From positions 1,952,001 to 2,016,000 of the forward strand of contig CM000154.2 in assembly GCA_000004695.1 (NCBI GenBank): 64,000 nucleotides of DNA, in the 5' to 3' direction. Source of the DNA: Dictyostelium discoideum. Its lineage: Eukaryota. Below the pieces are notes generated by a model. It saw only the letters and a program-made list of their open reading frames with translations. It was not told the DNA's origin and did no database searches. Both the position numbers and the translations under genes were made by a program. This document shows positions 4,943-37,962 of the stretch, piece after piece. Position 1 is the stretch's first letter; the number at the start of each line of letters is the position of its first letter.

Positions 4943-6443
4943 CTATTCAGATTTCTTCTTTTTTAAAGATAGTTTTTCATTTTTATAAAGTTTATCTTGT
5001 TGATCAATCCATTGATCAATATCAACCCATTTACGTAATAACCAGTCAATTCTTTCTTGTTTAGTCTTTGGAATATCTTTATATTTAATTTGTTCAAATT
5101 TAATTTTTACAACTCTATTACATAACTCACCATTCATCATTTGTCCAAAATCTGATGATGCTTCCATACCAAAATGAGAACAGAATAACTGAAAAAAAAA
5201 AAGATATTAGTAAATTTAAAAAAAAGAAAAAAAAAAAAAAAAATATATTAATAAAATTATAAATAATATTTACAATATCACCACATGGATTTGCTTCTAA
5301 AAGTGATAAAACACCACCAACTCTTGGTAATAATGTATGTTTAAGATTTGATGCTAATTCATAATTTTTAGTATCATTCTTTTTCTTAAAACTTTCTAAA
5401 ACTTTTTCTCTCTTTGATTTTGAAAATCTTGTACCTAATAAAAAAAAAATTATTATAATAATATTATATTATTAAAATTAAAAATCCAATTATATATTTT
5501 AAATAAATAATTTTTTTTTTTTTTTAAAAAAATTACCTTCTGGCCAAATACAAGTTACATCTGGTTCAGTTGGTTTAAAATCTGATACCATTGATTTAAT
5601 AGCTTCAATTTCAACCTCCATTCCATCTGTACCTGCATCTCTAAATAAGAAAAAGTTTGGTGTTCTTGAACCAGAAACATCAAGTGCTGGATCCCATAAT
5701 AATTCTTTCTTTACAATATATCTCATATGATAAAATAATGAAAAAATACCTCTTTTTTTAATATATTATTATTATTATTATTAAAAAAAAATTAAATTAG
5801 TAAAATAAAAAATAAATTTTTTTTTTTTTTTTTTAAAAAAAAAAACATACTGTGGTACTAAAGTATCAGCAAATGAGGCATGTCTCGAAAAGATAATTTT
5901 TGGACCAATACCTAAAGAATCAGCTAATCTCTTTTTGAAACCTTTATCATAGTAATGAGCAATGAAAGATGAATTGACATCACCAGCAACTTCAATTTGA
6001 ACATCAATACCCAAGAGATAACAACTCCAACCAAATAACATTTCACCACCCCACCAAGATTGATACCAATAGTTCCAACGGAAGAAACGTGCTTTACCAG
6101 GATCACTTACAACTAGTAATGATAATAAATGAATAAAGTAGATTAAAAATGTTGAAATCAATGCAATTAATTCTATGAATAAATAGGATTCAAAGAATGT
6201 TAAAATTCTAACATAATTTAATCCTCTACGACGTTTGTAATGATATAAATCCAATGCTAATGCTACAATTGCTAACACTGGGAATAATAATGTGAGTACT
6301 ACCAACACTATCAAAATTAATGAAATTGAAATACTTCTTCTATTCCATTTCTCTAACCATAAACGAAATCCACTATTAAATTCACTTGAGTATCTACCAT
6401 AATCATGTAAATATCTTTTCTTTGGTATTCTTTGTTTTGGTGG

Positions 6444-6492
<49 letters not shown>

Positions 6493-6527
6493 GATGTTGT
6501 TGAAGTTGAAGTTGTTAATGGTTCCAT
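4943..6527 (-). CDS. Glycerolipid acyltransferase of the GPAT3/4 / AGPAT (PlsC) family, 432 aa. Exons: complement join(5851..6527, 5537..5751, 5274..5434, 4943..5188).
   Basis: H(X)4D acyltransferase motif (FSRHASFADTL). FPEGTR-type motif IWPEG|TRFS spans intron 2. N-terminal TM helices are present. Introns run GTATGT/GTAATT/GTAAAT...AG, are 85-102 nt long, and keep phase. The track ORF start at 6596 is GTG, so I chose the first in-frame ATG at 6527 (MEPLTTS...). Total exon length is 1299 nt, which is 433 codons. Confidence 0.75.
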
Positions 6528-7110
6528 TATTTTATTAATATTATTATTTGTATTAATATTATTACTACCACTACTATTATAACTAATAATATTCACAGTA
6601 TAATTTAATAATAAACACTTTTAATTAATATGATAAAAAAAAAATTAAAAAATTAAAAAATAAAAAAATAAAAAAAAAAGAGAAAAAATATAAAAAAAAA
6701 AAATAAAAAAAAAGCAAAAAAAAAAAAAAAAAAAAAAATTTTAAAAAATGAGCACATGTTACACCAAAAAAAGATTCTTTTTTTATATTTTTTAAAAAAT
6801 ATCTTTTTTTTTATTTTGACCAATATTTTTTTTAAAAAGGTATTTTGTCACACAAAAAATAAAATATGATTTTTTTTTTTAAAATTTTTTTTTTTTTTTT
6901 TTTTCAAGAAAATATTCTGCAAAGATAAACATTAGATTAAAAAAAAAAAAACATTAGATTTAAAAACTTTTTGATTAAAAAAAAAAAGTTGTAAAAGAAA
7001 TAATTAATTCTTTAATTGATTATTTTTTTTTTAACACCAAAAACAATATCTAATTTTTTTTTTTTTTTTATTTTATTTTATTTTTATTTTATTTTATTTT
7101 TTTTTTTTTT

Positions 7111-7596
7111 TTAAATAATTAATTCCATCATTGTATCACAACGACTATAGACTGAGCTATGAAGAGGAATTAATTTAAAACCTAATTTTTCATATAATTT
7201 AATTGCTGGTGTTAAAATTGAATTTGTTTCCAAAAATAATTTTTTGGCATTTAATTCTTGTTTTGCTTTATTGATTAATGATTGTCCTAATAAGAAACCA
7301 ATTTGTTTTCCTTTTGCTTTTGGTGTTACAGACATTTTAGCAAGCTCATAACAAAACTTTTCAGGCTCTTCTGATTTTAAAAGTGCACATGTTCCAACGA
7401 CCTCTCCATTTAAAATTGCAAATATAATATGACCACCTTTATTTAAAATGTTTTCTTCAGGATTTTCCAATACTTTAATATCCTCCTCTTCCATTTTAAA
7501 ATATTGTGATATCCATTCAACACTTAAATTTTTAAAATTTTCTTTATACTTTGATTCATATGGTACAATTTTAATTTCATCATTTGTTTCAATCAT
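7111..7596 (-). CDS. GNAT-family N-acetyltransferase, 161 aa.
   Basis: Acetyl-CoA binding motif: ...VGTCALL...KQIGFLLGQSLINKAKQ (Q/RxxGxG/A). The track ORF start at 7644 is TTG, and the intervening lysines are an A-tract, so I used the real ATG at 7596 (MIETNDE). Confidence 0.7.
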   Translation of the reverse strand: MIETNDEIKIVPYESKYKENFKNLSVEWISQYFKMEEEDIKVLENPEENILNKGGHIIFAILNGEVVGTCALLKSEEPEKFCYELAKMSVTPKAKGKQIGFLLGQSLINKAKQELNAKKLFLETNSILTPAIKLYEKLGFKLIPLHSSVYSRCDTMMELII

Positions 7597-7852
7597 TTTT
7601 TTTTTTTTTTTTTGATATTTGATTTTTGATTTTTTTTTAAACAATTTTCAAACCAAAAAAAAAAAAAAAAAAACAAAACAATGACAAAAAAAACAAAACA
7701 AAAAAATGAAAAAAAAAAAAATAAAAATAAAAAAAAAAAAAATTTAGGATGACGTTAAACTTACTTTTACATTTGATTTAAATTCTTTTGACAATTCCAT
7801 TTAATTATATTTAATTAATTATTATCAACTTTTTAATAAATAATTGATTATC

Positions 7853-7898
<46 letters not shown>

Positions 7899-8646
7899 TT
7901 TTTTTTTAAACAATTATAATACCCCCAAAAAAAAAAAAAATTAAATTAATTAAAAATAATTAAAAAAATTTGGTCCAAAAAAAAAAGAAAAAAAAAAAAC
8001 AATTAACTTTCCAAAGTTCGCAATTAAGAATTCAAATAAAAAAAATTAAAAATTTTAAAAAAATAAAAAAAAAAAAAAAAATATTTATCAATAAATTCCT
8101 AATTTCTTAAATTTTTTTTTTTTTTTATTTTAGTGATTTTCTTTGATTGACCTTTTTATCACATGTGCTCAATTCCATTTAATAGCCACACACATAAATA
8201 AATATCTTAAAAAAAAAAAAAAAAAAACGGCTTTTTTTTTTTTTAAATTATTTTTTTTTTTTTAAATTATTTTTTTATTTTTTTTTGAATTTTTTGATTT
8301 TTCTTTTTTTTTTTTTTTTACATAACATTATACGTCAACTTTTTTTTTTTTTTTAAACAATAAAAATTTTGATTATTTCTTTTTTACTTTTTTTTTTTTT
8401 TCTTTTTTTATATACCCATTTTCTCTTCATTGTTTTATATATTTTCTTTTTTTTTTTTTTTTTTTTTATACAAAGGATCCTACATAATTCATAAAAAGAA
8501 GAAGAAAAAAAAAAAAAAAGTATGTATCCAAAATACAGATATTTATTGATTTTTTTACTTTTTTTAAAAATGACGTAGTGAAACCAAAAAAAATATTATT
8601 TATATAATGAAAAAAATAAAAAAGTGGAAAAATAAAAAAATAAAAA

Positions 8647-8838
8647 AAATATCTCTCACTTTCACAAAAAAAAAAAAATAAAATAAATATCTCTCACTTT
8701 CACAAAAAAAAAAATAAAAAAAATAAAAATAAAAATAATATCAAAAAATTAAAATAATATCAAAAAAATATACAATTAAATGAATAAAATAAAAATAATA
8801 TCAAAAACATATAATTAAATGAATAAAATAAAAAAAAG
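8647..8838. repeat. Two adjacent local tandem duplications in the intergenic A-desert.
   Basis: ATATCTCTCACTTTCACAAAAAAAAAAA occurs twice (from ~8650 and ~8688). AATAATATCAAAAA..ATTAAATGAATAAAATAAAAA occurs twice (8739-8838). Confidence 0.6.
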
Positions 8839-8862
8839 ATCAAACAACAATGAACCAACACA

Positions 8863-8898
<36 letters not shown>

Positions 8899-9584
8899 AA
8901 AAAAAAATAAATAAATAAAATAATTATAAAATAAAAATTCTTACTTTTAAAAGGTTTTGTTTTGTTTTGTTTTTTTTTTTTTTTTTTTAATTGTTAAATA
9001 ATAACCTTCTCAAAAAGTTTATAAATCTATAAATAGTGTCATTGTTTTTTATGCTCTTTATCAAACCAAAGTAATAAAAAAAAAAAAAAAAAAAAAAACT
9101 GGAAAAAAAAAAAAAAAAAAAAAAGATATTATTATTTATAATAATAGTAATAATATCAAAATTTTTGTGATATTAAAAATGGGGCTAAAATTGGAACGCA
9201 CAAAAAAGGGAATGTGTGTGATGGTGTGGGTTTTGGGAAACCTTTTTTTTTTTTTTTTTTTTTTTTTTATTTTTTTTATTTTTTTTTTCCAATTTTTTTT
9301 TTATGGGCCTCCACCTTTTTTTTTTTTTTATTTTTTGGGAAAATTTTTTTTTTCAAAATTTTTTTTATTTTTTTTTTTAAAATTTTCCTAATAATAGAAT
9401 TGTGATATCATTTTTTTCACTTCAAATAATTATATGTATGTTGGTAAAACAATTTCATTTTTTTTTTTTTTTTATATAAATTTTTATTTTTTTATTTTTT
9501 ATTTGTTTAAAATTTTATAATTATTTATTTTTTTTTAATATCTTTTATTAATTATCTAAAAAAAAAAAAAAAATCTTTTTTGAT

Positions 9585-15178: not shown

Positions 15179-16306
15179 ATGATTGATTCAGAGATAGAGT
15201 TAAATAAAGTAATAGTAGTACCATTAATATCAAAAGATTCATTAGATATTAATGATGCAAAAAATTACTATGGAACCGAGTTACACCCAAATCAACCAAT
15301 TCCAACAATAGTTTCAACTCAATCTGAAGTGAATTCTTTAGTTAATCAAAAATCTGGTAATAATCAACAATTGGCCAATGAAGAAAGATTAGTTATATTA
15401 TTAAAACAACAAGAGGTAGAAAAAGATAAAACATTTGATACAAATAAATATTTTAACGAATTATCAACAGATTTATTTGGAAAGAATTTAATTCATACTG
15501 AAGTAATTAGTTCAACACAAGATATAATGTTAAAATATTTAACATATACTCGTCAAGGATTAGTAATGATTGCAGATCAACAAACCGATGGTAGAGGACG
15601 TGATGGAAATAAATTCTTGTCTCCATTGGGATGTTTGTTAATGTCATTCAAATGTAAACAAACTGATTGTAACAAATTACCATTCCTTCAATATTTGACT
15701 GGTATGGCAATGGTCGAAGCAATTCACTCTTTCCCAATTGCATCTGATTTAAATCTTAGTTTGAAATGGCCAAATGAAATCTTTACTAAGGAAGCAGGTA
15801 TTAAGCTTGGTGGAGTCCTCTGTGAACCAAAATATCTTAACAATGAATTTGATGTTGTCATTGGTGTTGGTGTTTATCTTTCAAATTCAAATAATCCATC
15901 AACAACTGTAAATCAATTAATTCACCAGAAACAACAACATGGATCTTCTTTATCATCAACAACAACAAGTACTGATATTCCAATTTATATTAATAGAGAA
16001 GAATTGGTTTCAAAATTCTTTAACAAATTCGAACCAATGTTTATGGAGTTTACAAGAGATGGCTTTAATGCAGATCTTGAAAATAGATACACTGACTTAT
16101 GGATGCATACAAATCAAATTGTAAAAGTAAAAGAAAGAGATTACCATCATGTTAAAATCATTGGTATTTCTGATAGAGGTTTCCTTAAAGTTATTGAATG
16201 TGATGCTGGTGGTAATTCATCTCCAAACTCTCAAATCGTTGAACTAAACCCAGAAAGTACTTCATTTGATATTCAAAATTTAATTTTAATGCAAAAATCA
16301 CAATAA
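15179..16306 (+). CDS. Biotin--protein ligase (BirA/holocarboxylase-synthetase catalytic domain)-like protein, copy 1, 375 aa.
   Basis: BPL/LplA/LipB fold motifs: QTDGRGRDGNKFLSPLGCLLMSF (compare BirA QTAGRGRRGRKWFSP) and LKWPNEIF (conserved KWPND lysine). Confidence 0.7.
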   Translation: MIDSEIELNKVIVVPLISKDSLDINDAKNYYGTELHPNQPIPTIVSTQSEVNSLVNQKSGNNQQLANEERLVILLKQQEVEKDKTFDTNKYFNELSTDLFGKNLIHTEVISSTQDIMLKYLTYTRQGLVMIADQQTDGRGRDGNKFLSPLGCLLMSFKCKQTDCNKLPFLQYLTGMAMVEAIHSFPIASDLNLSLKWPNEIFTKEAGIKLGGVLCEPKYLNNEFDVVIGVGVYLSNSNNPSTTVNQLIHQKQQHGSSLSSTTTSTDIPIYINREELVSKFFNKFEPMFMEFTRDGFNADLENRYTDLWMHTNQIVKVKERDYHHVKIIGISDRGFLKVIECDAGGNSSPNSQIVELNPESTSFDIQNLILMQKSQ

Positions 16307-16882: not shown

Positions 16883-18010
16883 ATGATTGATTCAGATATA
16901 GAATTAAATAAAATAATAGTAGTACCATTAATATCAAAAGATTCATTAGATATTAATGATGCAAAAAATTACTATGGAACCGAGTTATACCCAAATCAAC
17001 CAATTCCAACCATAGTTTCAGCTCAATCTGAAGTAGATTCTTTAATTAATCAAACTTCTGGTAATAATGATGAAGAAAGATTAGTTTTATTATTAAAACA
17101 ACAACAACAAGAGGTAGAAAAAGATAAAACATTTGATACAAATAAATATTTTAACGAATTATCAACAATTTTATTTGGAAAGAATTTAATTCATTCTGAA
17201 GTAATTAGTTCAACACAAGATATAATGTTAAAATATTTAACATATACTCGTCAAGGATTAGTAATGATTGCAGACCAACAAACCAAAGGTAGAGGACGTG
17301 GTGTAAATAAATTCTTGTCTCCATTGGGATGTTTGTTAATGTCATTCAAATGTAAACAAACTGATGGTAATAAATTACCATTCCTTCAATATTTGGCTGG
17401 TATGGCAATGGTCGAAGCAATTCACTCTTTCCCAAGTGCATCTGATTTAAATCTTCGTTTGAAGTGGCCAAACGATATCTATAGTAATGAACCAGGTATG
17501 AAAGTTGGTGGTGTCCTCTGTGAATCAAATTATCTTAACAATGAATTTGATGTTGTCATTGGTGTTGGTGTTAATCTTTCAAATTCAAATAATCCATCAA
17601 CAACTATAAATCAATTAATTCAAAAGAAAAAATATGGATTTTCATCATCATCATTGGCAACAAGTACTGATATTCCAATTTATATTAGTAGAGAAGAATT
17701 GGTTTCAAAATTCTTTAACAAATTCGAACCAATGTTTATGGAATTTACAAGAGATGGCTTTAATGCAGATCTTGAAAATAGATACACTGACTTATGGATG
17801 CATACAAATCAAATTGTAAAATTTAAAGAAAGAGATAACCATCATGTTAAAATCATTGGTATTTCTGATAGTGGTTTCCTTAAAGCTATTGAATGTGATG
17901 CTGATGGTAATACATCTTCTGACTCTGAAACCGTTGAGCTTCACCCAGATGGTACTTCATTTGATATTCAAAACTTAATTTTAATGCAAAAATCACAACA
18001 ACCAAAATAG
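16883..18010 (+). CDS. Biotin--protein ligase-like protein, copy 2 (tandem paralogue of 15179..16306), 375 aa.
   Basis: About 90% nucleotide identity to copy 1 across the CDS and the immediate 5' leader. Motifs QTKGRGRGVNKFLSPLGCLLMSF and LKWPNDIY. The duplication unit is ~1.7 kb. Confidence 0.7.
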   Translation: MIDSDIELNKIIVVPLISKDSLDINDAKNYYGTELYPNQPIPTIVSAQSEVDSLINQTSGNNDEERLVLLLKQQQQEVEKDKTFDTNKYFNELSTILFGKNLIHSEVISSTQDIMLKYLTYTRQGLVMIADQQTKGRGRGVNKFLSPLGCLLMSFKCKQTDGNKLPFLQYLAGMAMVEAIHSFPSASDLNLRLKWPNDIYSNEPGMKVGGVLCESNYLNNEFDVVIGVGVNLSNSNNPSTTINQLIQKKKYGFSSSSLATSTDIPIYISREELVSKFFNKFEPMFMEFTRDGFNADLENRYTDLWMHTNQIVKFKERDNHHVKIIGISDSGFLKAIECDADGNTSSDSETVELHPDGTSFDIQNLILMQKSQQPK

Positions 18011-30433: not shown

Positions 30434-32703
30434 TTATTCATTTGATAATAAAGCAACTCTATAAAGATCCAAATAATTTCTAGCAGCAAATGAATGATTA
30501 TAAACTAAACCATTAAAAGCTTTAGTTGCATCTTTACCAATATAATCGTCAATGTATTGTTTACCACCTGGATGTTTTTCAGCAAATTCAGACATATCAT
30601 AGATAACATCTTCAATGATTAAGAGTTGTTTCTTTTCTTTTTGACATTTCTCTTTAACTTGAGCACGAGTGAATGATGGTAATTGATCCAATGGTTTACC
30701 CCAATAGAGTTGATCACGTAATTTTTTGATGGTTTTCTCTTGCATTTGAATTTTACCTTTTGCGAATAATTCACTTGGGAATCTCTTTAATTCATAGGCG
30801 AAACCAAACCAACTAAGGAAATTGATTAACCACTTACCTGGATCGTAAGCAGACATATGAATACCATTTCTGTAATCATATGGGAATTCATGATGAAAGT
30901 TATGATAACCTTCACCAAAAGTGACCAAAGATGTGATAAAAGAGTCACGTGGAGATCTTTGGTCGGTGTAAGTTGCTTCACCAAGATAATGAGCCAAAGA
31001 GTTGATACAAAAGGTACATTGCATCATGAGTACTTTGGAGGCAACACCAGCGATGAAAAATCCACCTTTCCAATCATTCCAACCAAAACCACAAATGAAC
31101 ATTGGTAAGAACCAACCCAAACTGAATGCCAATGGAATGAAATATTTATGTTGGAAACGTAAAACTGGATCAGCTTTAAGATCACTAATATCGGCATCAC
31201 CTGGAATACGTTTGAAAAGCATCCAACCCATATGGGAATAGAAAAGACCTTTCTTTACATTGTATGGATCCTTATCGGTATCAGTGAAACGATGATGGGC
31301 ACGATGATCTTGGCACCATTCGAAAACACTACCTTCAAAAGTTGATGTACCCATTAACATGAGAACTATACGAACTGGTAATGAAGCCCTATAGGAACGA
31401 TGAGAGAATAAACGATGATAACCAGCTGTAATACCCATACCAGAGATATAGTAAGCGAGGAATGCGGTAATATAGGTTTTAGTGATGAATGGAGTTGTTA
31501 AAATACCATAGAGTGCTAAAAATGGGGTACCACATAAAAAGATAGCAACATTCCAATTGATTCTTTCATGGAATGGTTTTGATGGATCAACCTTGAGCAA
31601 ACCAAATGGATGAGTTACTGGATCGAATAAATTGGAGGATGAGGTCTCATCTTGTTTCTTTTCATCCAATTCGACAGAGAGTGTAGAATTCTTTGGTTCA
31701 ACATGTTGGACAACTGGTGGTAAATTGATCAAGAGTGAAGCAAATGATAATTCAGTGATATTTTCATACTCTTTCTTTAATAAATTGTAAGCATCTTTCC
31801 ATTTGTATGATGGTACACCCAAATTTTGAGACATGTGACTCAAGGTAACACCAATGTTAAAATCTTGTGTTAAATATTGTACCCAACGTGGGAGGGCAAA
31901 GAAAGTTGGTTTACTTGCGACACTTGAGAGAGATGAAGCCTTGAGGAATGTTGACATCCAAAAGTGGTACACAAACAATGGGATCAAATAGTACTTGAAT
32001 AAACCCCAAATGCCCATACTGTAGGTCATAATTGGGAAGAATAATGCGATGAATACATAAAGGAATGAGACTGAGACCATCATTGATTTGGAGAATTTGA
32101 AACTGAAATTTAATGATAACCATTGAAGTAATGAACTGAGGAACCAAAAATTACCACTTGCAATCTCACGAACGAAATCACGACTTGCTGTTGCTTTCTT
32201 TTCAATTCTTTTCTTCCAATAGGCTAATGGATACATTAATGGTAACATACAAATTGTTCCAACTACATAGTTAACAAATTTATTCTTGAAAAATAAATCA
32301 TTACCACATGCATACCCAACAGAGAATAATCCACAACATGCTGTACCCATAAATATCCATCCAATTGGTAACAAATACCATGGAAGTGCATATACTAAAT
32401 ATGTACCAATTGTCACTAAACCAATTGATGCTAATAATTTCTTTGTTGCTGTTCTTGTACTTTTTTCAAATACCTTTAAAAAAAATAAAAAAATAAAAAA
32501 TAAAAAAAATAATTAATAAAAAAAAGTTTTTTTTTTTTTTTTTTTATATATTTCAAAAAGTTTTTATTTTTATTTGCACTTTTATTATTATTATTATTAA
32601 AATTATTATATTAATTATAAATTTTTTATTAACTTACTTCTTGTGGAAGTTTTGAGATCATTTCAATTGCCTCAGTACATGAGGTAATTGGAGATGATAT
32701 CAT
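30434..32703 (-). CDS. Δ9 acyl-CoA (stearoyl-CoA-type) desaturase fused to a C-terminal cytochrome b5 domain, preceded by a ~290-aa N-terminal membrane domain that resembles a degenerate FAD2/ω-desaturase without histidine boxes. 701 aa. Exons: complement join(32638..32703, 30434..32473).
   Basis: Δ9 desaturase His boxes: HRLFSHRSY, HRAHHRFTDTDKDPY, HNFHHEFPYDY. Cytochrome b5: EFAEKHPGGK...GKDATKAFNG. The N-terminal domain aligns to FAD2 with degenerate boxes: GTACCGLFSVGYACGNDLFF (compare HECGHHAF), NYVVGTICMLPLMYPLAYWKKRIEKKA (compare [26 protein letters not shown]), FNIGVTLSHMSQNLGVPSY (compare FHNITDTHVAHHLFSTMPHY). The track ORF start is GTG. The real exon 1 is ATGATATCATCTCC...CAAGAA|GTAAGT, followed by a 164-nt intron. 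Confidence 0.75.
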
Positions 32704-33592: not shown

Positions 33593-33973
33593 ATGGGTAA
33601 AAAGAAAATTGATATAAATACAAGAGAAGATTTATTTTTATCATATTATAAAGAAATTGAAAAAAATAAATTTGATCTTTTAAAAATTTGCAGTGACAAA
33701 AATTTTTCAAAATCAAATTTTTTAAAAGCAGTTCACTGTTTATTTTCATTATCATATTTTTGTAAAATTAAAGATGAAAATGAAGAAGAAGAAGGAAAAG
33801 AAGAAGAAATAAATGATTACAAAGTTAAAAAAAGCACAACTGGTAATTATTACAGAAATTCCGAAGGCAAATTATTTAAAAAATCAAATGAAAAAGATCA
33901 AATAGATGATGTTTCCATATTTTATAAAAGATTACCAACAATCCAAGATTTTAAAGACACATATGACAAATAG
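33593..33973 (+). CDS. Small hypothetical protein (126 aa, K/E-rich). May be an independent small gene.
   Basis: ATG-initiated 126-codon ORF in AT-rich DNA with good AAAATGG start context and no homology I can recognise. No in-phase GT donor could link it to the downstream kinase gene. Confidence 0.3.
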   Translation: MGKKKIDINTREDLFLSYYKEIEKNKFDLLKICSDKNFSKSNFLKAVHCLFSLSYFCKIKDENEEEEGKEEEINDYKVKKSTTGNYYRNSEGKLFKKSNEKDQIDDVSIFYKRLPTIQDFKDTYDK

Positions 33974-34127
33974 TGGGTTTTTTTATTTTTTTTTTATTTT
34001 ATTTTTTTATTATTTATTATTTAATAAATTAACTTTTTTTTTAATTATTATTATTATTTATTTTTAAATTAGTGAAAATTGTTTAAATTCAGTTTATTAT
34101 ATTATTAGAAAAATTAAATTATTACAT

Positions 34128-37100
34128 TTGGAATATTTTTGGGAAATTTTAGCTTCTTGTTATGGAACGATATCATTTATTAAATTTTTTAATATATTTT
34201 CAAATGAAATATTTTCACCAAGTGAAAATGGAGATTCAGTTTTTATAATGGTTGGAAAATTTTTTAGAAGAAAAGTAAGAGCAGAGACACATTATGATTT
34301 AATATTTTTAAAAATCATATTGGCCAACGCATCAATACCAATGATTTTAAAACTTGGAGTTAAAGATATAGGTAGATTTACAGAAAAGGAGGATATTATA
34401 GTATCATATTATAGAAACTTTTCAATAATTCATTCACTTAGATTTGATAATGTTAAAGAGTTTGCATTAGTTTATAAAACTTTAAAGAATAATTATCCAT
34501 CAAAAAAAAAAAAAAAAATTACACTTTTTGAAGAAAATGGGAAAATTAATGTTAAAACATCAAAAAAAGATTTAATGCTATTCGAATTTGTTTGTAAATT
34601 TGATTGTGTTAAAATTTTTAAGAAATATTTTTTACCAAAACCTCAAATTATTAATAATAATGATAATAATGAAATGTTAGAATGTATTAGTAGTGGATCA
34701 TATTCAGGATTTGATGAAAAGAGTAAACGTAAAATTAGAATTTTTTTTTCAATATGTTGCAGACAAATTTCACCTAAAATCTTAAAATGCATTGTCGATT
34801 ATGTCAAGGATGATATTGGTTTTTTAGATTTACAAAATAGGCAAGATATTTACATTGGAGATTCAGCACCTGAAAAAGTTTTATTTCTAAATTGTTTTTT
34901 TGGTAATCATAAAGAACAACGTGTTATAGATTTTTTTAATCTCCTTACATCCAAATCAATTATAATATGTAATACTATTAAAGAGAAACCGGAACTTTAT
35001 GATTATCGTTATATTACATTGTCAACTGTTGATTCTACATTTTATTTTTCTGATAGTCATAAAGGTGCTGATTTTGGTGTTTACACTGATGAGATTAATG
35101 TTATTATTAATAATGATGATATTGATTATGATTATATTGGTGATGATGATAATGATGAAGAAATAGAAGAAACAAAAGATTATGGTAGTAGTAGTAGTGA
35201 TATTGATGATTTTTATAATGTATTTGAACCAAAAGCATCAATGATACCAAATATATTGGATTCTTGTAGTTTGGAAATACTAAAAGCATATATTCAAAAT
35301 ATAACTGGAAATGGTTTATTCAAAATAAGTCCATCATTATTTTTAGCACATGATGTAACTAGATTAGTTAGAAATCCAAAACCAAAAACAGAAACTGTTG
35401 TTAAAATATTGGAATTCATTAATACAATTTCAAGACTTTCAGAATTATCAACCAACGGTGTTCCTTTCACTTTTTTAACTAATAGATTCGAAATTGTCAC
35501 TAGTATAATTATGTCATTACATGATGAACGATCTATTTCAAATTCTGTTGAACCAGTTCAATGGTTACGTGCACTTGCTCCATTTGTTTCAAATGATGAA
35601 ATGAAATTAATTATATACAAAGTTAGAACTCTTTACAACTATGAACCACATTCAAATGGTGAAATCAAATATACCGAATTAGTTAGATTATTTGATGTTC
35701 AATATCTTTTAACTAAAGGTAAATTTTCACTATCTCAATTTAATGGTTTTGAAACTTCAATTTTTTTAAATCCAAAATTACTTGATGGTACTATTAATTC
35801 AAATATTTTAAATTCAATGATTATTAAAGACAAAGAAAAACTAGACTTAAAAGAATTATTTTTTAAAGAAAAACCACTTTCAGAAGCTGAACTTAAAGAA
35901 AAATTTGAAATTGCTACAAAAAATGAAAAAGAGTTATTGGACCAATTAAAAAAAGAAAATGATGCTGAAAAATTAAAAAAGAAAAATAAATTAAAAAAAC
36001 AAAAAAATCAACAACAACAACAACAGGCTAAACAACAAGCTCAACAACAAAAACAACAACACCAACAAAATATTCAACAAAATTATGAAAATCAACATAT
36101 TGAAGACCAACGAAAATTTAACCAACAAACCAAAGGTCGACCTATCTCTCCTTCATCAATTCAAAACCAAAATTTAAATCCAACTTTATTACAAAATCAA
36201 AATCAAACTTCAAACCCAACACCAAATTTAGAGTCAACAAAAAAAGCAACACCGACAACAACAACAACAACAACAACAAATTCCAATACATCAGCAATTA
36301 TAAATGAAATTAAAAATCAAGATTTAAATCAACAACAAAATATAACAGAAAATATAAATGAAATATATGATGTTTCAATTGGTAAATTTAAATTTAATAA
36401 AAAAGAGTCAAATATATTGGGTAGAGGATCAAATGGTACATTAGTATTTAAAGGTATTTGGAATAATAGAATACCAGTAGCAATTAAACAAATGCAAAAG
36501 ATGTTTAACCCATTAATTAGTAAAGAAATTGAAATTTTAATTGGTTTAACCAATAAAAACTTAAATTTAGTTGGATACATTGATCAAGAAGAAGATGAAA
36601 ATTGTGTTTACCTTGGTTTAACTCTATGTGATGGTTCATTACAATCTTTATACGATCAATCAAAATTAAATGAATTTATTAATCAAAATAATAATCAAAA
36701 TAATAATAATAATAATAATAGAGTATTGGATTTAATTATTGGAATGATAAATGGTGTAATATTTTTACATGATCAAAATATAGTTCATAATGATTTAAAT
36801 CCAAGAAATATATTAGTAAAAGATAATAGATTAATAATTTCAGATTTAGGTTTAAGTAAGATGAATGTTAGTTCAACTTATAATTTCTCAACAAATGCAA
36901 TTCCAACTGGTCAAGATGGGTATCATCCTGTTGAAGTACTTTTAGAGAAAAGAAAAACTAAATCAGTTGATGTTTTTTCTTTAGGTTGTTTAATTTATTT
37001 TATAATGACAAATGGTGCTCACCCATTTGGTGATAAATTCTCAAGACTTCGTTATATCACTAAAAGCAAATACAATCTATCTCAATTATCAAATTTAAAT

Positions 37101-37336
37101 TTAGTGGCAACTCATTTAATTGAATTGATGATATCATATGATGAGAGTAAAAGACCGACCCTATCATCAGTTTTAAAACATCCTTTGTTTTGGGACAGTT
37201 TAAAGAAAATTAAGTTTTTAGAATCTTCTTTACGTTTATTGGGTGATCATGATTTTAAGAAATTCAATATCAATAAAATATTAATTAGTTGTAATAGTAA
37301 TAGTAGTAGTAGTAATAGTATTTGTAATAGTAGTAA

Positions 37337-37371
<35 letters not shown>

Positions 37372-37745
37372 GTAGTTGTAAAATTAGTAGCAGTAGTTGT
37401 TATTGTGTACCATTACCTTGGAATCAATCACTCGATTATCAATTAGTGGATTCTTTATCAAATCAAATTGAAAAAAAAGTAGCATCTTATAAATTTGATC
37501 AACTTCATGATTTAATTCGATTCATCAGAAATACTCTACAACATTATAATCAAATTTATAGAGATTTAAAACAAATTTTACCAAATAGTGATATTTTAGA
37601 GTCATTAAAATCACAACAGTCGGCTTTAAATTATTTCGAATCCAAATTTCCAACTCTAATAATTTTTTTATTTAATCATTTTAGTGCTATACCTGAAATT
37701 AAAAATTCTATCCATTTTTCAAATGATACTTGTTCAATTTTTTAA
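34128..37745 (+). CDS. IRE1-like protein: Ser/Thr kinase domain followed by a KEN (kinase-extension nuclease) RNase domain, with no ER-luminal sensor or TM segment (the irl-type IRE1-like family). The 5' end is uncertain; the first in-frame ATG is at 34248.
   Basis: Kinase: LGRGSNGTLVFKG, VAIKQM, HNDLNPRNILV (variant HRD), ISDLGLSK (variant DFG), PTGQDGYHPVE. KEN: HPLFWDSLKKIKFLESSLRLLGDH...DLIRFIRNTLQHYNQIYRDLKQILPN...YFESKFPTLIIFLFNHF (compare IRE1 DLLRALRNKKHHYRELP...YFTSRFPHLL). The track ORF start at 34128 is TTG. An acceptor-like TATTATTAG sits at 34101-34109, but no upstream coding exon was found. Confidence 0.7.
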
Positions 37746-37889: not shown

Positions 37890-37962
37890 GGTTTTATAGT
37901 GTAATTGGTTAGCACCCAGGACTTTGAATCCTGTAATCTGAGTTCGAGTCTCAGTAGAACCA
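37890..37962 (+). tRNA. tRNA-Gln (anticodon UUG).
   Basis: GGTTTTATAGTGTAATTGGTTAGCACCCAGGACTTTGAATCCTGTAATCTGAGTTCGAGTCTCAGTAGAACCA. It forms a cloverleaf with a 7-bp acceptor stem, A-box TAGTGTAATTGG, B-box GAGTTCGAGTCTC, anticodon loop CTTTGAA, and near-identity to the canonical eukaryotic tRNA-Gln(UUG) sequence as I remember it. A T-run terminator follows. Confidence 0.9.

Follow-up and report, generated by a model that had tools for sequence, protein, structure and literature searches.

irlE of Dictyostelium discoideum encodes an IRE1-like kinase and KEN protein without a luminal sensor: a candidate soluble endoribonuclease

The KEN ribonuclease (RNase) site is assembled, in IRE1 as in RNase L, when the kinase-like domains bind nucleotide and dimerise back to back. 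We analysed a 64,000-nt stretch of the Dictyostelium discoideum AX4 genome (contig CM000154.2, positions 1,952,001 to 2,016,000 of the forward strand; the window hereafter), in which an earlier note had described the 1205-amino acid (aa) open reading frame (ORF) at 34128..37745 (+) as a sensor-less, IRE1-like kinase and RNase with altered catalytic motifs. The gene that contains this ORF is irlE (DDB_G0288803, UniProt Q54IE8). Its product, IrlE, joins an IRE1-like kinase domain to a KEN domain that keeps its catalytic residues, has no luminal sensor, and carries a long N-terminal region that is at least in part under purifying selection. By analogy with IRE1 and RNase L, we lean towards the view that IrlE is a soluble endoribonuclease that would be activated by self-association in response to an N-terminal input, with phosphorylation probably being dispensable.

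The Dictyostelium IRE family was reported to consist of seven members, all of which contain an RNase(L) domain and only one of which, IreA, is apparently membrane-bound (Goldberg et al. 2006, PMC1420674). Table S2 of that kinome paper gives VAIK or VAVK, HNDLNPRN and DLG as the motifs of IrlA-F, and HRDIKPHN and DMG as those of IreA (PMC1420674). IrlE was placed in the class Other/IRE and scored 'kd' and 'a', meaning a good kinase domain that is predicted to be active, and it clusters with IrlC and IrlD in the kinase tree (PMC1420674). The same authors pointed out that Irl members have no Ser or Thr at the position of T201 in PKA and may accept tyrosine (PMC1420674). We found no functional work on any irl gene in the searchable literature beyond this paper. 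The gene, its family, the missing membrane anchor and the altered motifs were already known, and the interpretation offered in the earlier note is correct, yet it has been in print since 2006. What we add here is the gene model, the retention of the KEN catalytic residues, an IRE1-like model of the kinase-KEN module, and an N-terminal block under selection.

The spliced product of 1350 aa was 100% identical over 1350 aa to the annotated protein (XP_636529.1, EAL63023.1; our entry P0001), which is named 'Probable serine/threonine-protein kinase irlE' in UniProt Q54IE8. This match settles which of IreA and IrlA-F the ORF belongs to, a question that the earlier note had raised, and we regard the identity of the gene and its structure as near certain. 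The combination that distinguishes the Irl subfamily, namely HNDLNPRN, DLG, a KEN domain and no membrane anchor, was found in the window sequence. No paralogue was detected by tblastn inside the 64-kb window. An orthologue of 1379 aa (P0002) was present in assembly GCA_054859385.1, which is labelled D. discoideum; identity to IrlE was 88% by BLASTP, and 96% of the aligned residues were identical. Since the synonymous divergence (dS) between the two genes is 0.065, the source of this assembly appears to be a divergent strain or a sibling species. All ratios of non-synonymous to synonymous divergence (dN/dS) given below are from the comparison of IrlE with this orthologue.

The catalytic half of the protein contains the following features.

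36408..37190 (+): protein kinase domain, aa 906-1166 (Pfam PF00069, E 6.5e-32)
36420..36437 (+): Gly loop GRGSNG, in the kinase domain
36477..36488 (+): VAIK, in the kinase domain
36519..36539 (+): alpha-C Glu in SKEIEIL, in the kinase domain
36681..36719 (+): Asn-rich insert, in the kinase domain
36786..36809 (+): catalytic loop HNDLNPRN, aa 1032-1039
36843..36851 (+): DLG in place of DFG, aa 1051-1053
37290..37397 (+): poly-Ser/Asn/Cys insert, about 36 aa, close to where the KEN domain begins, aa 1200-1235
37317..37721 (+): KEN (Ribonuc_2-5A) endoribonuclease domain, aa 1209-1343 (Pfam PF06479)
within 37482..37496 (+): Tyr1266, a KEN catalytic residue
37518..37544 (+): RFIRNTLQH, with the KEN catalytic residues Arg1279-Asn1280 and His1284

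The KEN domain lies directly C-terminal to the kinase domain, at residues 1064-1198 of the ORF, and was recognised by PF06479 (E 3.6e-19; 69.6 bits, with the gathering cut-off at 23.3). In a residue alignment with yeast Ire1 and human IRE1alpha, the yeast residues Y1043, R1056, N1057 and H1061 correspond to Y1266, R1279, N1280 and H1284 of IrlE, and the Arg and Asn are nearly invariant across the family alignment. With this score and all four catalytic residues kept, the full KEN nuclease domain that had been claimed is present. The dN/dS of the KEN domain was 0.21. The kinase domain, at residues 761-1021 of the ORF, gave the Pfam match that had been proposed as a check. Among solved structures its best relatives were yeast and human IRE1, in their kinase-RNase regions (E 1.5e-46 to 1e-38), and IRE1 accounted for the top 16 sequence matches in the PDB. 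The Pfam and PDB results together support the assignment to the IRE1 family. In the sequence search with the KEN domain as query, RNase L was found at E 0.86 versus 0.002 for IRE1.

An AlphaFold2 (AF2) model of aa 890-1350, built from a 15-sequence alignment, had a predicted local distance difference test score (pLDDT) of 78 and a predicted template modelling score of 0.80. The model is confident, and the only disordered parts in it are the activation loop, the poly-Ser insert and the C-terminal tail. The insert, which is absent from all aligned homologues and varies in length in the orthologue, was modelled as a disordered loop with pLDDT below 50 (model residues 308-348), whereas the remainder of the KEN domain reached about 85-90. 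The best 50 PDB matches of this model in Foldseek were all IRE1 kinase-RNase structures, with target-normalised template modelling scores of 0.77-0.85; RNase L was not among these 50. The model thus supports an IRE1-like fold for the kinase-KEN module.

The altered catalytic motifs were as described in the earlier note, with HND for HRD in the loop HNDLNPRN and DLG for DFG. In the loop, both the Arg of HRD and the catalytic-loop Lys have become Asn, but the loop still has its catalytic Asp and its Mg-binding Asn; in addition, PVE replaces APE. The canonical RD loop (HRDxKPxN) and DFG of the IRE1 family, which go with phosphorylation of the activation loop, are therefore not found in IrlE. The residues that bind nucleotide are all present: the Gly loop, the Lys of VAIK, the alpha-C Glu, the Asp and Asn of the catalytic loop, and the Asp of DLG. 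Expressed in terms of the standard positions, the equivalents of K72, E91, D166, N171 and D184 are retained, and the HRD Arg and the catalytic-loop Lys are lost. Among 15 aligned kinase-KEN homologues, HNDLNPRN was shared only by a protein from Acytostelium; the others had HRDxKPxN except for P0030, with YRDLKP, and the degenerate P0037. The altered motifs are not private to IrlE, because the same set occurs in all six Irl paralogues and HNDLNPRN occurs in the Acytostelium homologues. The aligned sequences indicate that the non-RD loop is a conserved feature of this clade and not a sign of decay, and the kinase domain had a dN/dS of 0.14.

The Acytostelium subglobosum protein (P0004) is annotated as a 399-aa kinase-KEN gene product with the HNDLNPRN loop, and is 46% identical to IrlE. 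On DF837595.1 (locus L002, 5116..9200) it begins 52 bp beyond an 892-aa 'hypothetical' gene without a Pfam domain. However, 5565..9200 of this locus is a single uninterrupted ORF of 1211 aa that encodes, in order, an N-terminal region, a P/S/T-rich linker, the kinase domain and the KEN domain; the two models are therefore almost certainly one gene. Thus the layout and the unusual catalytic loop are shared by two dictyostelid genera that are only distantly related. DMG is the motif of IreA and of the Acytostelium homologues, versus DLG in IrlE. The N-terminal regions of IrlE and the Acytostelium protein had no detectable sequence similarity. A second Irl-like protein of Acytostelium (P0005, 649 aa) has HNDLNPRN and DMG in a gene model that lacks the KEN RNxxxH stretch, which reflects either a missed exon or a degenerate RNase domain.

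The window is 13-30% G+C (GC) with coding tracts for poly-Q, poly-N and poly-T, and the ORF taken as the gene proved to be only part of it. The coding sequence is join(33593..33972, 34073..37745), the spliced translation of which is exactly the annotated protein and exceeds the ORF by 145 aa.

33593..33972 (+): irlE exon 1, aa 1-126 and the first two bases of codon 127, placed by the match of the spliced translation; start context AAAAAAAATGGGT
33728..33769 (+): 'AVHCLFSLSYFCKI' motif, in exon 1
from 33938 (+): start of the 'TIQDFKDTYDKY' motif, in exon 1
33973..34072 (+): irlE intron, 100 nt, GT..AG, 6% GC
34073..37745 (+): irlE exon 2, to the TAA stop; 34128..37745 is its stop-free core

The coding character of the ORF is real, but it covers exon 2 only and its TTG 'start' is an internal Leu codon; the first ATG within it is at 34248, as had been stated. 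The upstream 126-aa ORF, which the earlier note had singled out as possibly co-transcribed, is exon 1, joined to the rest across the 100-nt GT..AG intron. IrlE and its orthologue both begin with MGKKKID. In the orthologous locus (L001) an intron of 92 nt with GT..AG ends occupies the same position, and the divergently transcribed neighbour, a desaturase with cytochrome b5, is conserved as well.

This gene model bears on the absence of a luminal sensor. Upstream of the irlE ATG there are only 1176 bp of spacer, with 11.9% GC and 24-34 stops in every frame, before the next gene is reached; the corresponding spacer of the orthologous locus is 874 bp with 10.6% GC. No upstream exon for a luminal domain is possible because nothing but this spacer precedes the gene, and we ruled out an exon coding for a signal peptide, a transmembrane segment or a luminal domain on the same grounds at both loci. 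The discovery of such an exon was the outcome that the earlier note had named as fatal to its sensor-less reading. The N-terminus of IrlE is hydrophilic (MGKKKIDINTRED) and therefore does not form a signal peptide, and Pfam gave no match to a luminal domain. The earlier claim that both are missing thus stands on the protein as well as on the lack of upstream coding capacity. The claim that there is no transmembrane segment holds in that no clear one was found, but one segment, LIFLKIILANASIPMILKL (aa 203-221), is borderline. Over 19 residues it averages 1.90 on the Kyte-Doolittle scale, and the orthologous segment 1.77; soluble ORFs of the same window reach at most 1.22 and its membrane-protein ORFs 2.3-3.9. 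The segment contains Lys, Asn, Ser and Pro, and the aligned positions in IrlA, IrlC and IrlD are amphipathic. We consider that it is more probably a buried helix, to judge from its composition and its paralogues.

The region that precedes the kinase domain is about 895 aa long and not about 500 aa as had been noted. Roughly 735 aa of this region are probably structured, and a further 160 aa or so form a coiled-coil, poly-Q and poly-T linker.

34074..35102 (+): block A, aa 128-470; predicted helical, no Pfam or PDB match, dN/dS 0.106
34143..34163 (+): EILASCY, a block A motif shared with IrlC and IrlD
34299..34355 (+): LIFLKIILANASIPMILKL, aa 203-221, the most hydrophobic segment and borderline transmembrane candidate
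34431..34475 (+): HSLRFDNVKEFALVY, a block A motif shared with IrlC and IrlD
34572..34628 (+): LMLFEFVCKFDCVKIFKKY, a block A motif shared with IrlC and IrlD
35103..35222 (+): acidic spacer of low complexity, aa 471-510; identity to the orthologue only 85%, no confident structure
35223..35897 (+): block B, aa 511-735; predicted helical, dN/dS 0.47, no Pfam match
35898..36377 (+): linker, aa 736-895; probable coiled coil rich in K and E, followed by poly-Q, N/Q-rich and poly-T tracts

Block B is less constrained than block A (dN/dS 0.47 versus 0.106), and the linker, with a dN/dS of 1.08 and 34 indel columns in the comparison with the orthologue, evolves neutrally. Small as the counts are, they show a clear pattern, in which block A is as constrained as the catalytic domains. 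These substitution patterns indicate that the N-terminus of IrlE is functional and that aa 128-470 are under purifying selection. The description 'sensor-less' is therefore apt for the endoplasmic reticulum (ER), since no luminal sensor is present, but the selected N-terminal region could itself act as a sensor, or as a targeting domain.

No Pfam family was found in the N-terminal region even at E<=10. An exhaustive phmmer search with aa 1-724 against 1.84 billion representatives under the default bias filter returned only the cluster of IrlE itself, and under this filter no database-wide homologue was obtained at E<=1e-3. When the paralogue fragments were searched, 3 sequences passed the MSV stage and 0 passed the bias filter, so that every N-terminal match between Irl paralogues is discarded by HMMER at its default setting. 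The database-wide negative is thus partly an artefact and no proof that the region is an orphan, and we dropped the orphan reading once the filter had been found to reject all paralogue matches. Negatives of this kind for other Dictyostelium proteins that are rich in low-complexity sequence can have the same origin. A profile of the six Irl N-termini found nothing significant in the PDB, the best match (E 0.038) being an unrelated metallo-beta-lactamase. A degenerate ankyrin or other helical-repeat N-terminus, an idea that came from the Acytostelium sequence, was rejected when neither a Pfam repeat nor a PDB profile match was obtained and the N-termini of IrlE and Acytostelium proved dissimilar.

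The comparison between paralogues was made with the N-terminal fragments of about 400 aa in Table S2 of Goldberg et al. (2006), with the HMMER filters turned off. These fragments were used because searches with the insert-free kinase-KEN sequence never returned the D. discoideum paralogues; a search with full-length IrlE was dominated by low-complexity words and yielded only IrlE, its orthologue and one spurious match. Several N-termini were clearly related (IrlC-IrlD, E 1e-14; IrlA-IrlD, 1e-10; IrlB-IrlF, 1e-11). The matches of IrlE to IrlC and IrlD were weak (E 0.004-0.008 in a search space of 8). In Smith-Waterman alignments, the score of IrlE 101-300 against IrlD (z=4.8) was reached by 1 of 2000 composition-matched shuffles and that against IrlC (z=2.7) by 38 of 2000, while IrlB and IrlF gave no signal over shuffles. 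A profile of IrlA, IrlC and IrlD scored the whole IrlE sequence no better than shuffles. In the six-way alignment we found the collinear motifs CLIxLC, TLxxFKDxY, SxIKFxNCF, FSxxxxxxDN and WxxICxF. On this evidence the N-terminal regions of the Irl family are probably homologous, although this is not proven.

We favour a reading in which IrlE acts in the cytosol as a regulated endoribonuclease of the kind represented by IRE1 and RNase L. Its kinase-like domain would bind nucleotide and provide the scaffold for a back-to-back dimer or oligomer, and this scaffold would pair two KEN domains into an active, metal-independent RNase that leaves 2',3'-cyclic phosphate ends. Unlike that of IRE1, activation would probably be independent of autophosphorylation of the activation loop, because the catalytic loop is of the non-RD type (HND) and is without its Lys. 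The N-terminal region would supply the input, whether a ligand, a partner or localisation, that drives self-association, and would play the part of the luminal domain in IRE1 or of the ankyrin repeats in RNase L. Several points weigh against this proposal. The proposed sensor role is purely a matter of inference, because the region has no Pfam or PDB match and AF2, given an alignment of two sequences, modelled its first 724 aa too poorly for use (mean pLDDT 30.8). Few substitutions underlie the dN/dS values (dS 0.065; block A has 8 non-synonymous and 17 synonymous ones). The Kyte-Doolittle mean of 1.9 at aa 203-221 makes membrane association possible, and so is activation that depends on autophosphorylation as in IRE1, given the prediction of activity by Goldberg et al. 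(2006) and the presence of the K72, D166 and D184 equivalents. Biochemical, genetic or expression data for irl genes were not found in the searchable literature.

The main rival is that IrlE behaves like IRE1 minus the lumen, as an active kinase whose trans-autophosphorylation gates the RNase or which mainly phosphorylates substrates, possibly on tyrosine; we rate this as possible but doubtful. The five retained residues equivalent to K72, E91, D166, N171 and D184, the published 'kd' and 'a' scores, and the kinase dN/dS of 0.14 would all be expected of an active enzyme, and tyrosine as a target would fit the missing Ser/Thr at the PKA T201 position (PMC1420674). Loss of the loop Lys need not be decisive, since Dictyostelium haspin, with HNDLHFGN, also lacks it and is predicted to be active (PMC1420674). 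On the other hand, the Arg of HRD usually connects the catalytic loop with a phosphorylated activation loop, a link that goes with its loss, and PVE stands in place of APE. It is established for kinases that the loop Lys contacts the gamma-phosphate and that its loss normally lowers phosphotransfer. At the other extreme, the altered motifs, the long low-complexity inserts and a very divergent N-terminus with no database-wide homologue under the default bias filter could suggest a decaying, functionless duplicate from a lineage-specific IRE expansion. This is barely credible: a reading frame of 4053 nt is uninterrupted in a genome of 22-24% GC, dN/dS is 0.11-0.21 in block A, kinase and KEN versus about 1 in the linker, the altered motifs are common to the six paralogues and Acytostelium, and the KEN catalytic residues are intact. 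We rejected the pseudogene reading on the dN/dS values and the intact frame.

The remaining alternatives concern where the input would come from. If aa 203-221 anchored IrlE in a membrane, the protein could be a stress RNase that is associated with the ER or another organelle and whose sensing takes place at the membrane instead of in the lumen. The hydropathy of the segment exceeds both the classical threshold of 1.6 and every soluble ORF of the window, but it falls well below the true membrane proteins of the window, and the segment contains polar residues and Pro. Moreover, its flanks carry a net charge of +3 on the N-terminal side and -1 on the C-terminal side, which by the positive-inside rule would leave the kinase and KEN domains on the luminal side, an implausible arrangement. 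With the amphipathic character of the paralogous segments and the report that no Irl member is membrane-bound (PMC1420674), we consider a membrane anchor quite unlikely. It seems at least as improbable that IrlE is a strict analogue of RNase L, in which the N-terminal region would form a degenerate solenoid of ankyrin or other helical repeats and bind a small-molecule second messenger. Its domain order does resemble that of RNase L, the N-terminal region is predicted to be mostly helical (AF2, low confidence), and the Acytostelium N-terminus has a faint Ank_3 match (E 0.68). However, no ankyrin or other repeat family was found in IrlE at E<=10, the six-Irl profile detected no ankyrin protein in the PDB, and there is no evidence of a pathway resembling that of 2-5A. 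The kinase-KEN region is also closer to IRE1, RNase L lying outside the best 50 fold matches and at E 0.86 by sequence.

A broader proposal can be put forward tentatively, namely that the six Irl proteins are an amoebozoan counterpart of RNase L, as soluble endoribonucleases activated by signals. Their N-termini, specific to the family and quick to diverge, would sense different cytosolic cues, which may be stress, nutrient, pathogen or developmental signals, and their kinase-like domains, of the non-RD type and without the loop Lys, would act as nucleotide-dependent dimerisation switches that do not require phosphorylation. If this were true, IrlE would control a specific set of cytosolic RNAs independently of the ER unfolded-protein response. 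As regulated cytosolic RNases, the Irl proteins would show how the kinase-KEN switch can be rewired to inputs other than ER stress, for which RNase L is to our knowledge the only illustration so far. Dictyostelium is a tractable model organism in which to study Irl function.

Other features were observed around irlE and elsewhere in the window.

15179..16306 (+) and 16883..18010 (+): tandem genes for 375-aa biotin/lipoate protein ligases (PF03099), 85% identical to each other
30434..32416 (-): divergently transcribed neighbour of irlE, a fatty-acid desaturase with a cytochrome b5 domain fused at its C-terminus; syntenic in L001
37769..37963 (-): 64-aa ORF that overlaps the tRNA gene and is probably spurious
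37890..37962 (+): tRNA-Gln(UUG) gene, 144 nt downstream of the irlE stop codon
40096..41877 (+): 593-aa ORF without a Pfam match, with a poly-Ile end and a Kyte-Doolittle mean of 3.9

The PF03099 pair looks like a recent tandem duplication. In the mechanical ORF 30434..32416 the desaturase domain does not begin until about residue 317. The 593-aa ORF probably reads through into A/T-rich DNA of low complexity, in which case its poly-Ile end would not be a real transmembrane segment.

Of the known systems, IRE1 (ERN1, including yeast Ire1p, human IRE1alpha and IreA) is the nearest in the catalytic half. IrlE shares with it the kinase-KEN fold, the position of the KEN domain C-terminal to an IRE1-like kinase domain, and the Tyr, Arg, Asn and His of the KEN site. 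It differs in having no signal peptide, luminal sensor or clear single transmembrane segment, in the replacement of the HRD Arg and loop Lys by Asn, of DFG by DLG and of APE by PVE, and in the poly-Ser insert of its KEN domain. An unrelated N-terminal region of about 895 aa takes the place of the IRE1 luminal domain. The family is further marked by unconventional splicing of a HAC1/XBP1-type mRNA or by RIDD activity. For IreA, the membrane-bound Dictyostelium member, no substrate is known (PMC13343406).

Proteins with leucine-rich repeats (LRRs), a kinase-KEN module and hydrophobic segments were seen in invertebrates and metagenomes (P0015, P0016, P0020, P0035 and others), P0035 being a protein of the coral Paramuricea annotated as 'IRE1-like'. 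They resemble IrlE in that the kinase-KEN module is coupled to an N-terminal domain not found in IRE1, here a different putative sensor. In contrast to IrlE, they carry LRRs, HRDIKPxN and DFD for DFG, and are 27-31% identical to it. Within Dictyostelium, IrlA-D and IrlF have the same HNDLNPRN and DLG motifs as IrlE, the same C-terminal RNase(L)/KEN domain and likewise no membrane anchor, whereas the N-terminus of IrlE has diverged so extremely from theirs that only the collinear motifs are detectable. RNase L, the 2-5A-dependent RNase of vertebrates, agrees with the soluble character predicted for IrlE and with its overall order, a large N-terminal region followed by a non-canonical kinase-like domain and a KEN domain (PF06479). 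It differs in its ankyrin repeats, which bind 2-5A and none of which were detected in IrlE by Pfam (E<=10) or by the PDB profile. RNase L has a catalytically dead pseudokinase domain that binds nucleotide only. In IrlE the phosphotransfer residues are mostly retained, and its kinase-KEN region resembles that of IRE1 far more than that of RNase L.

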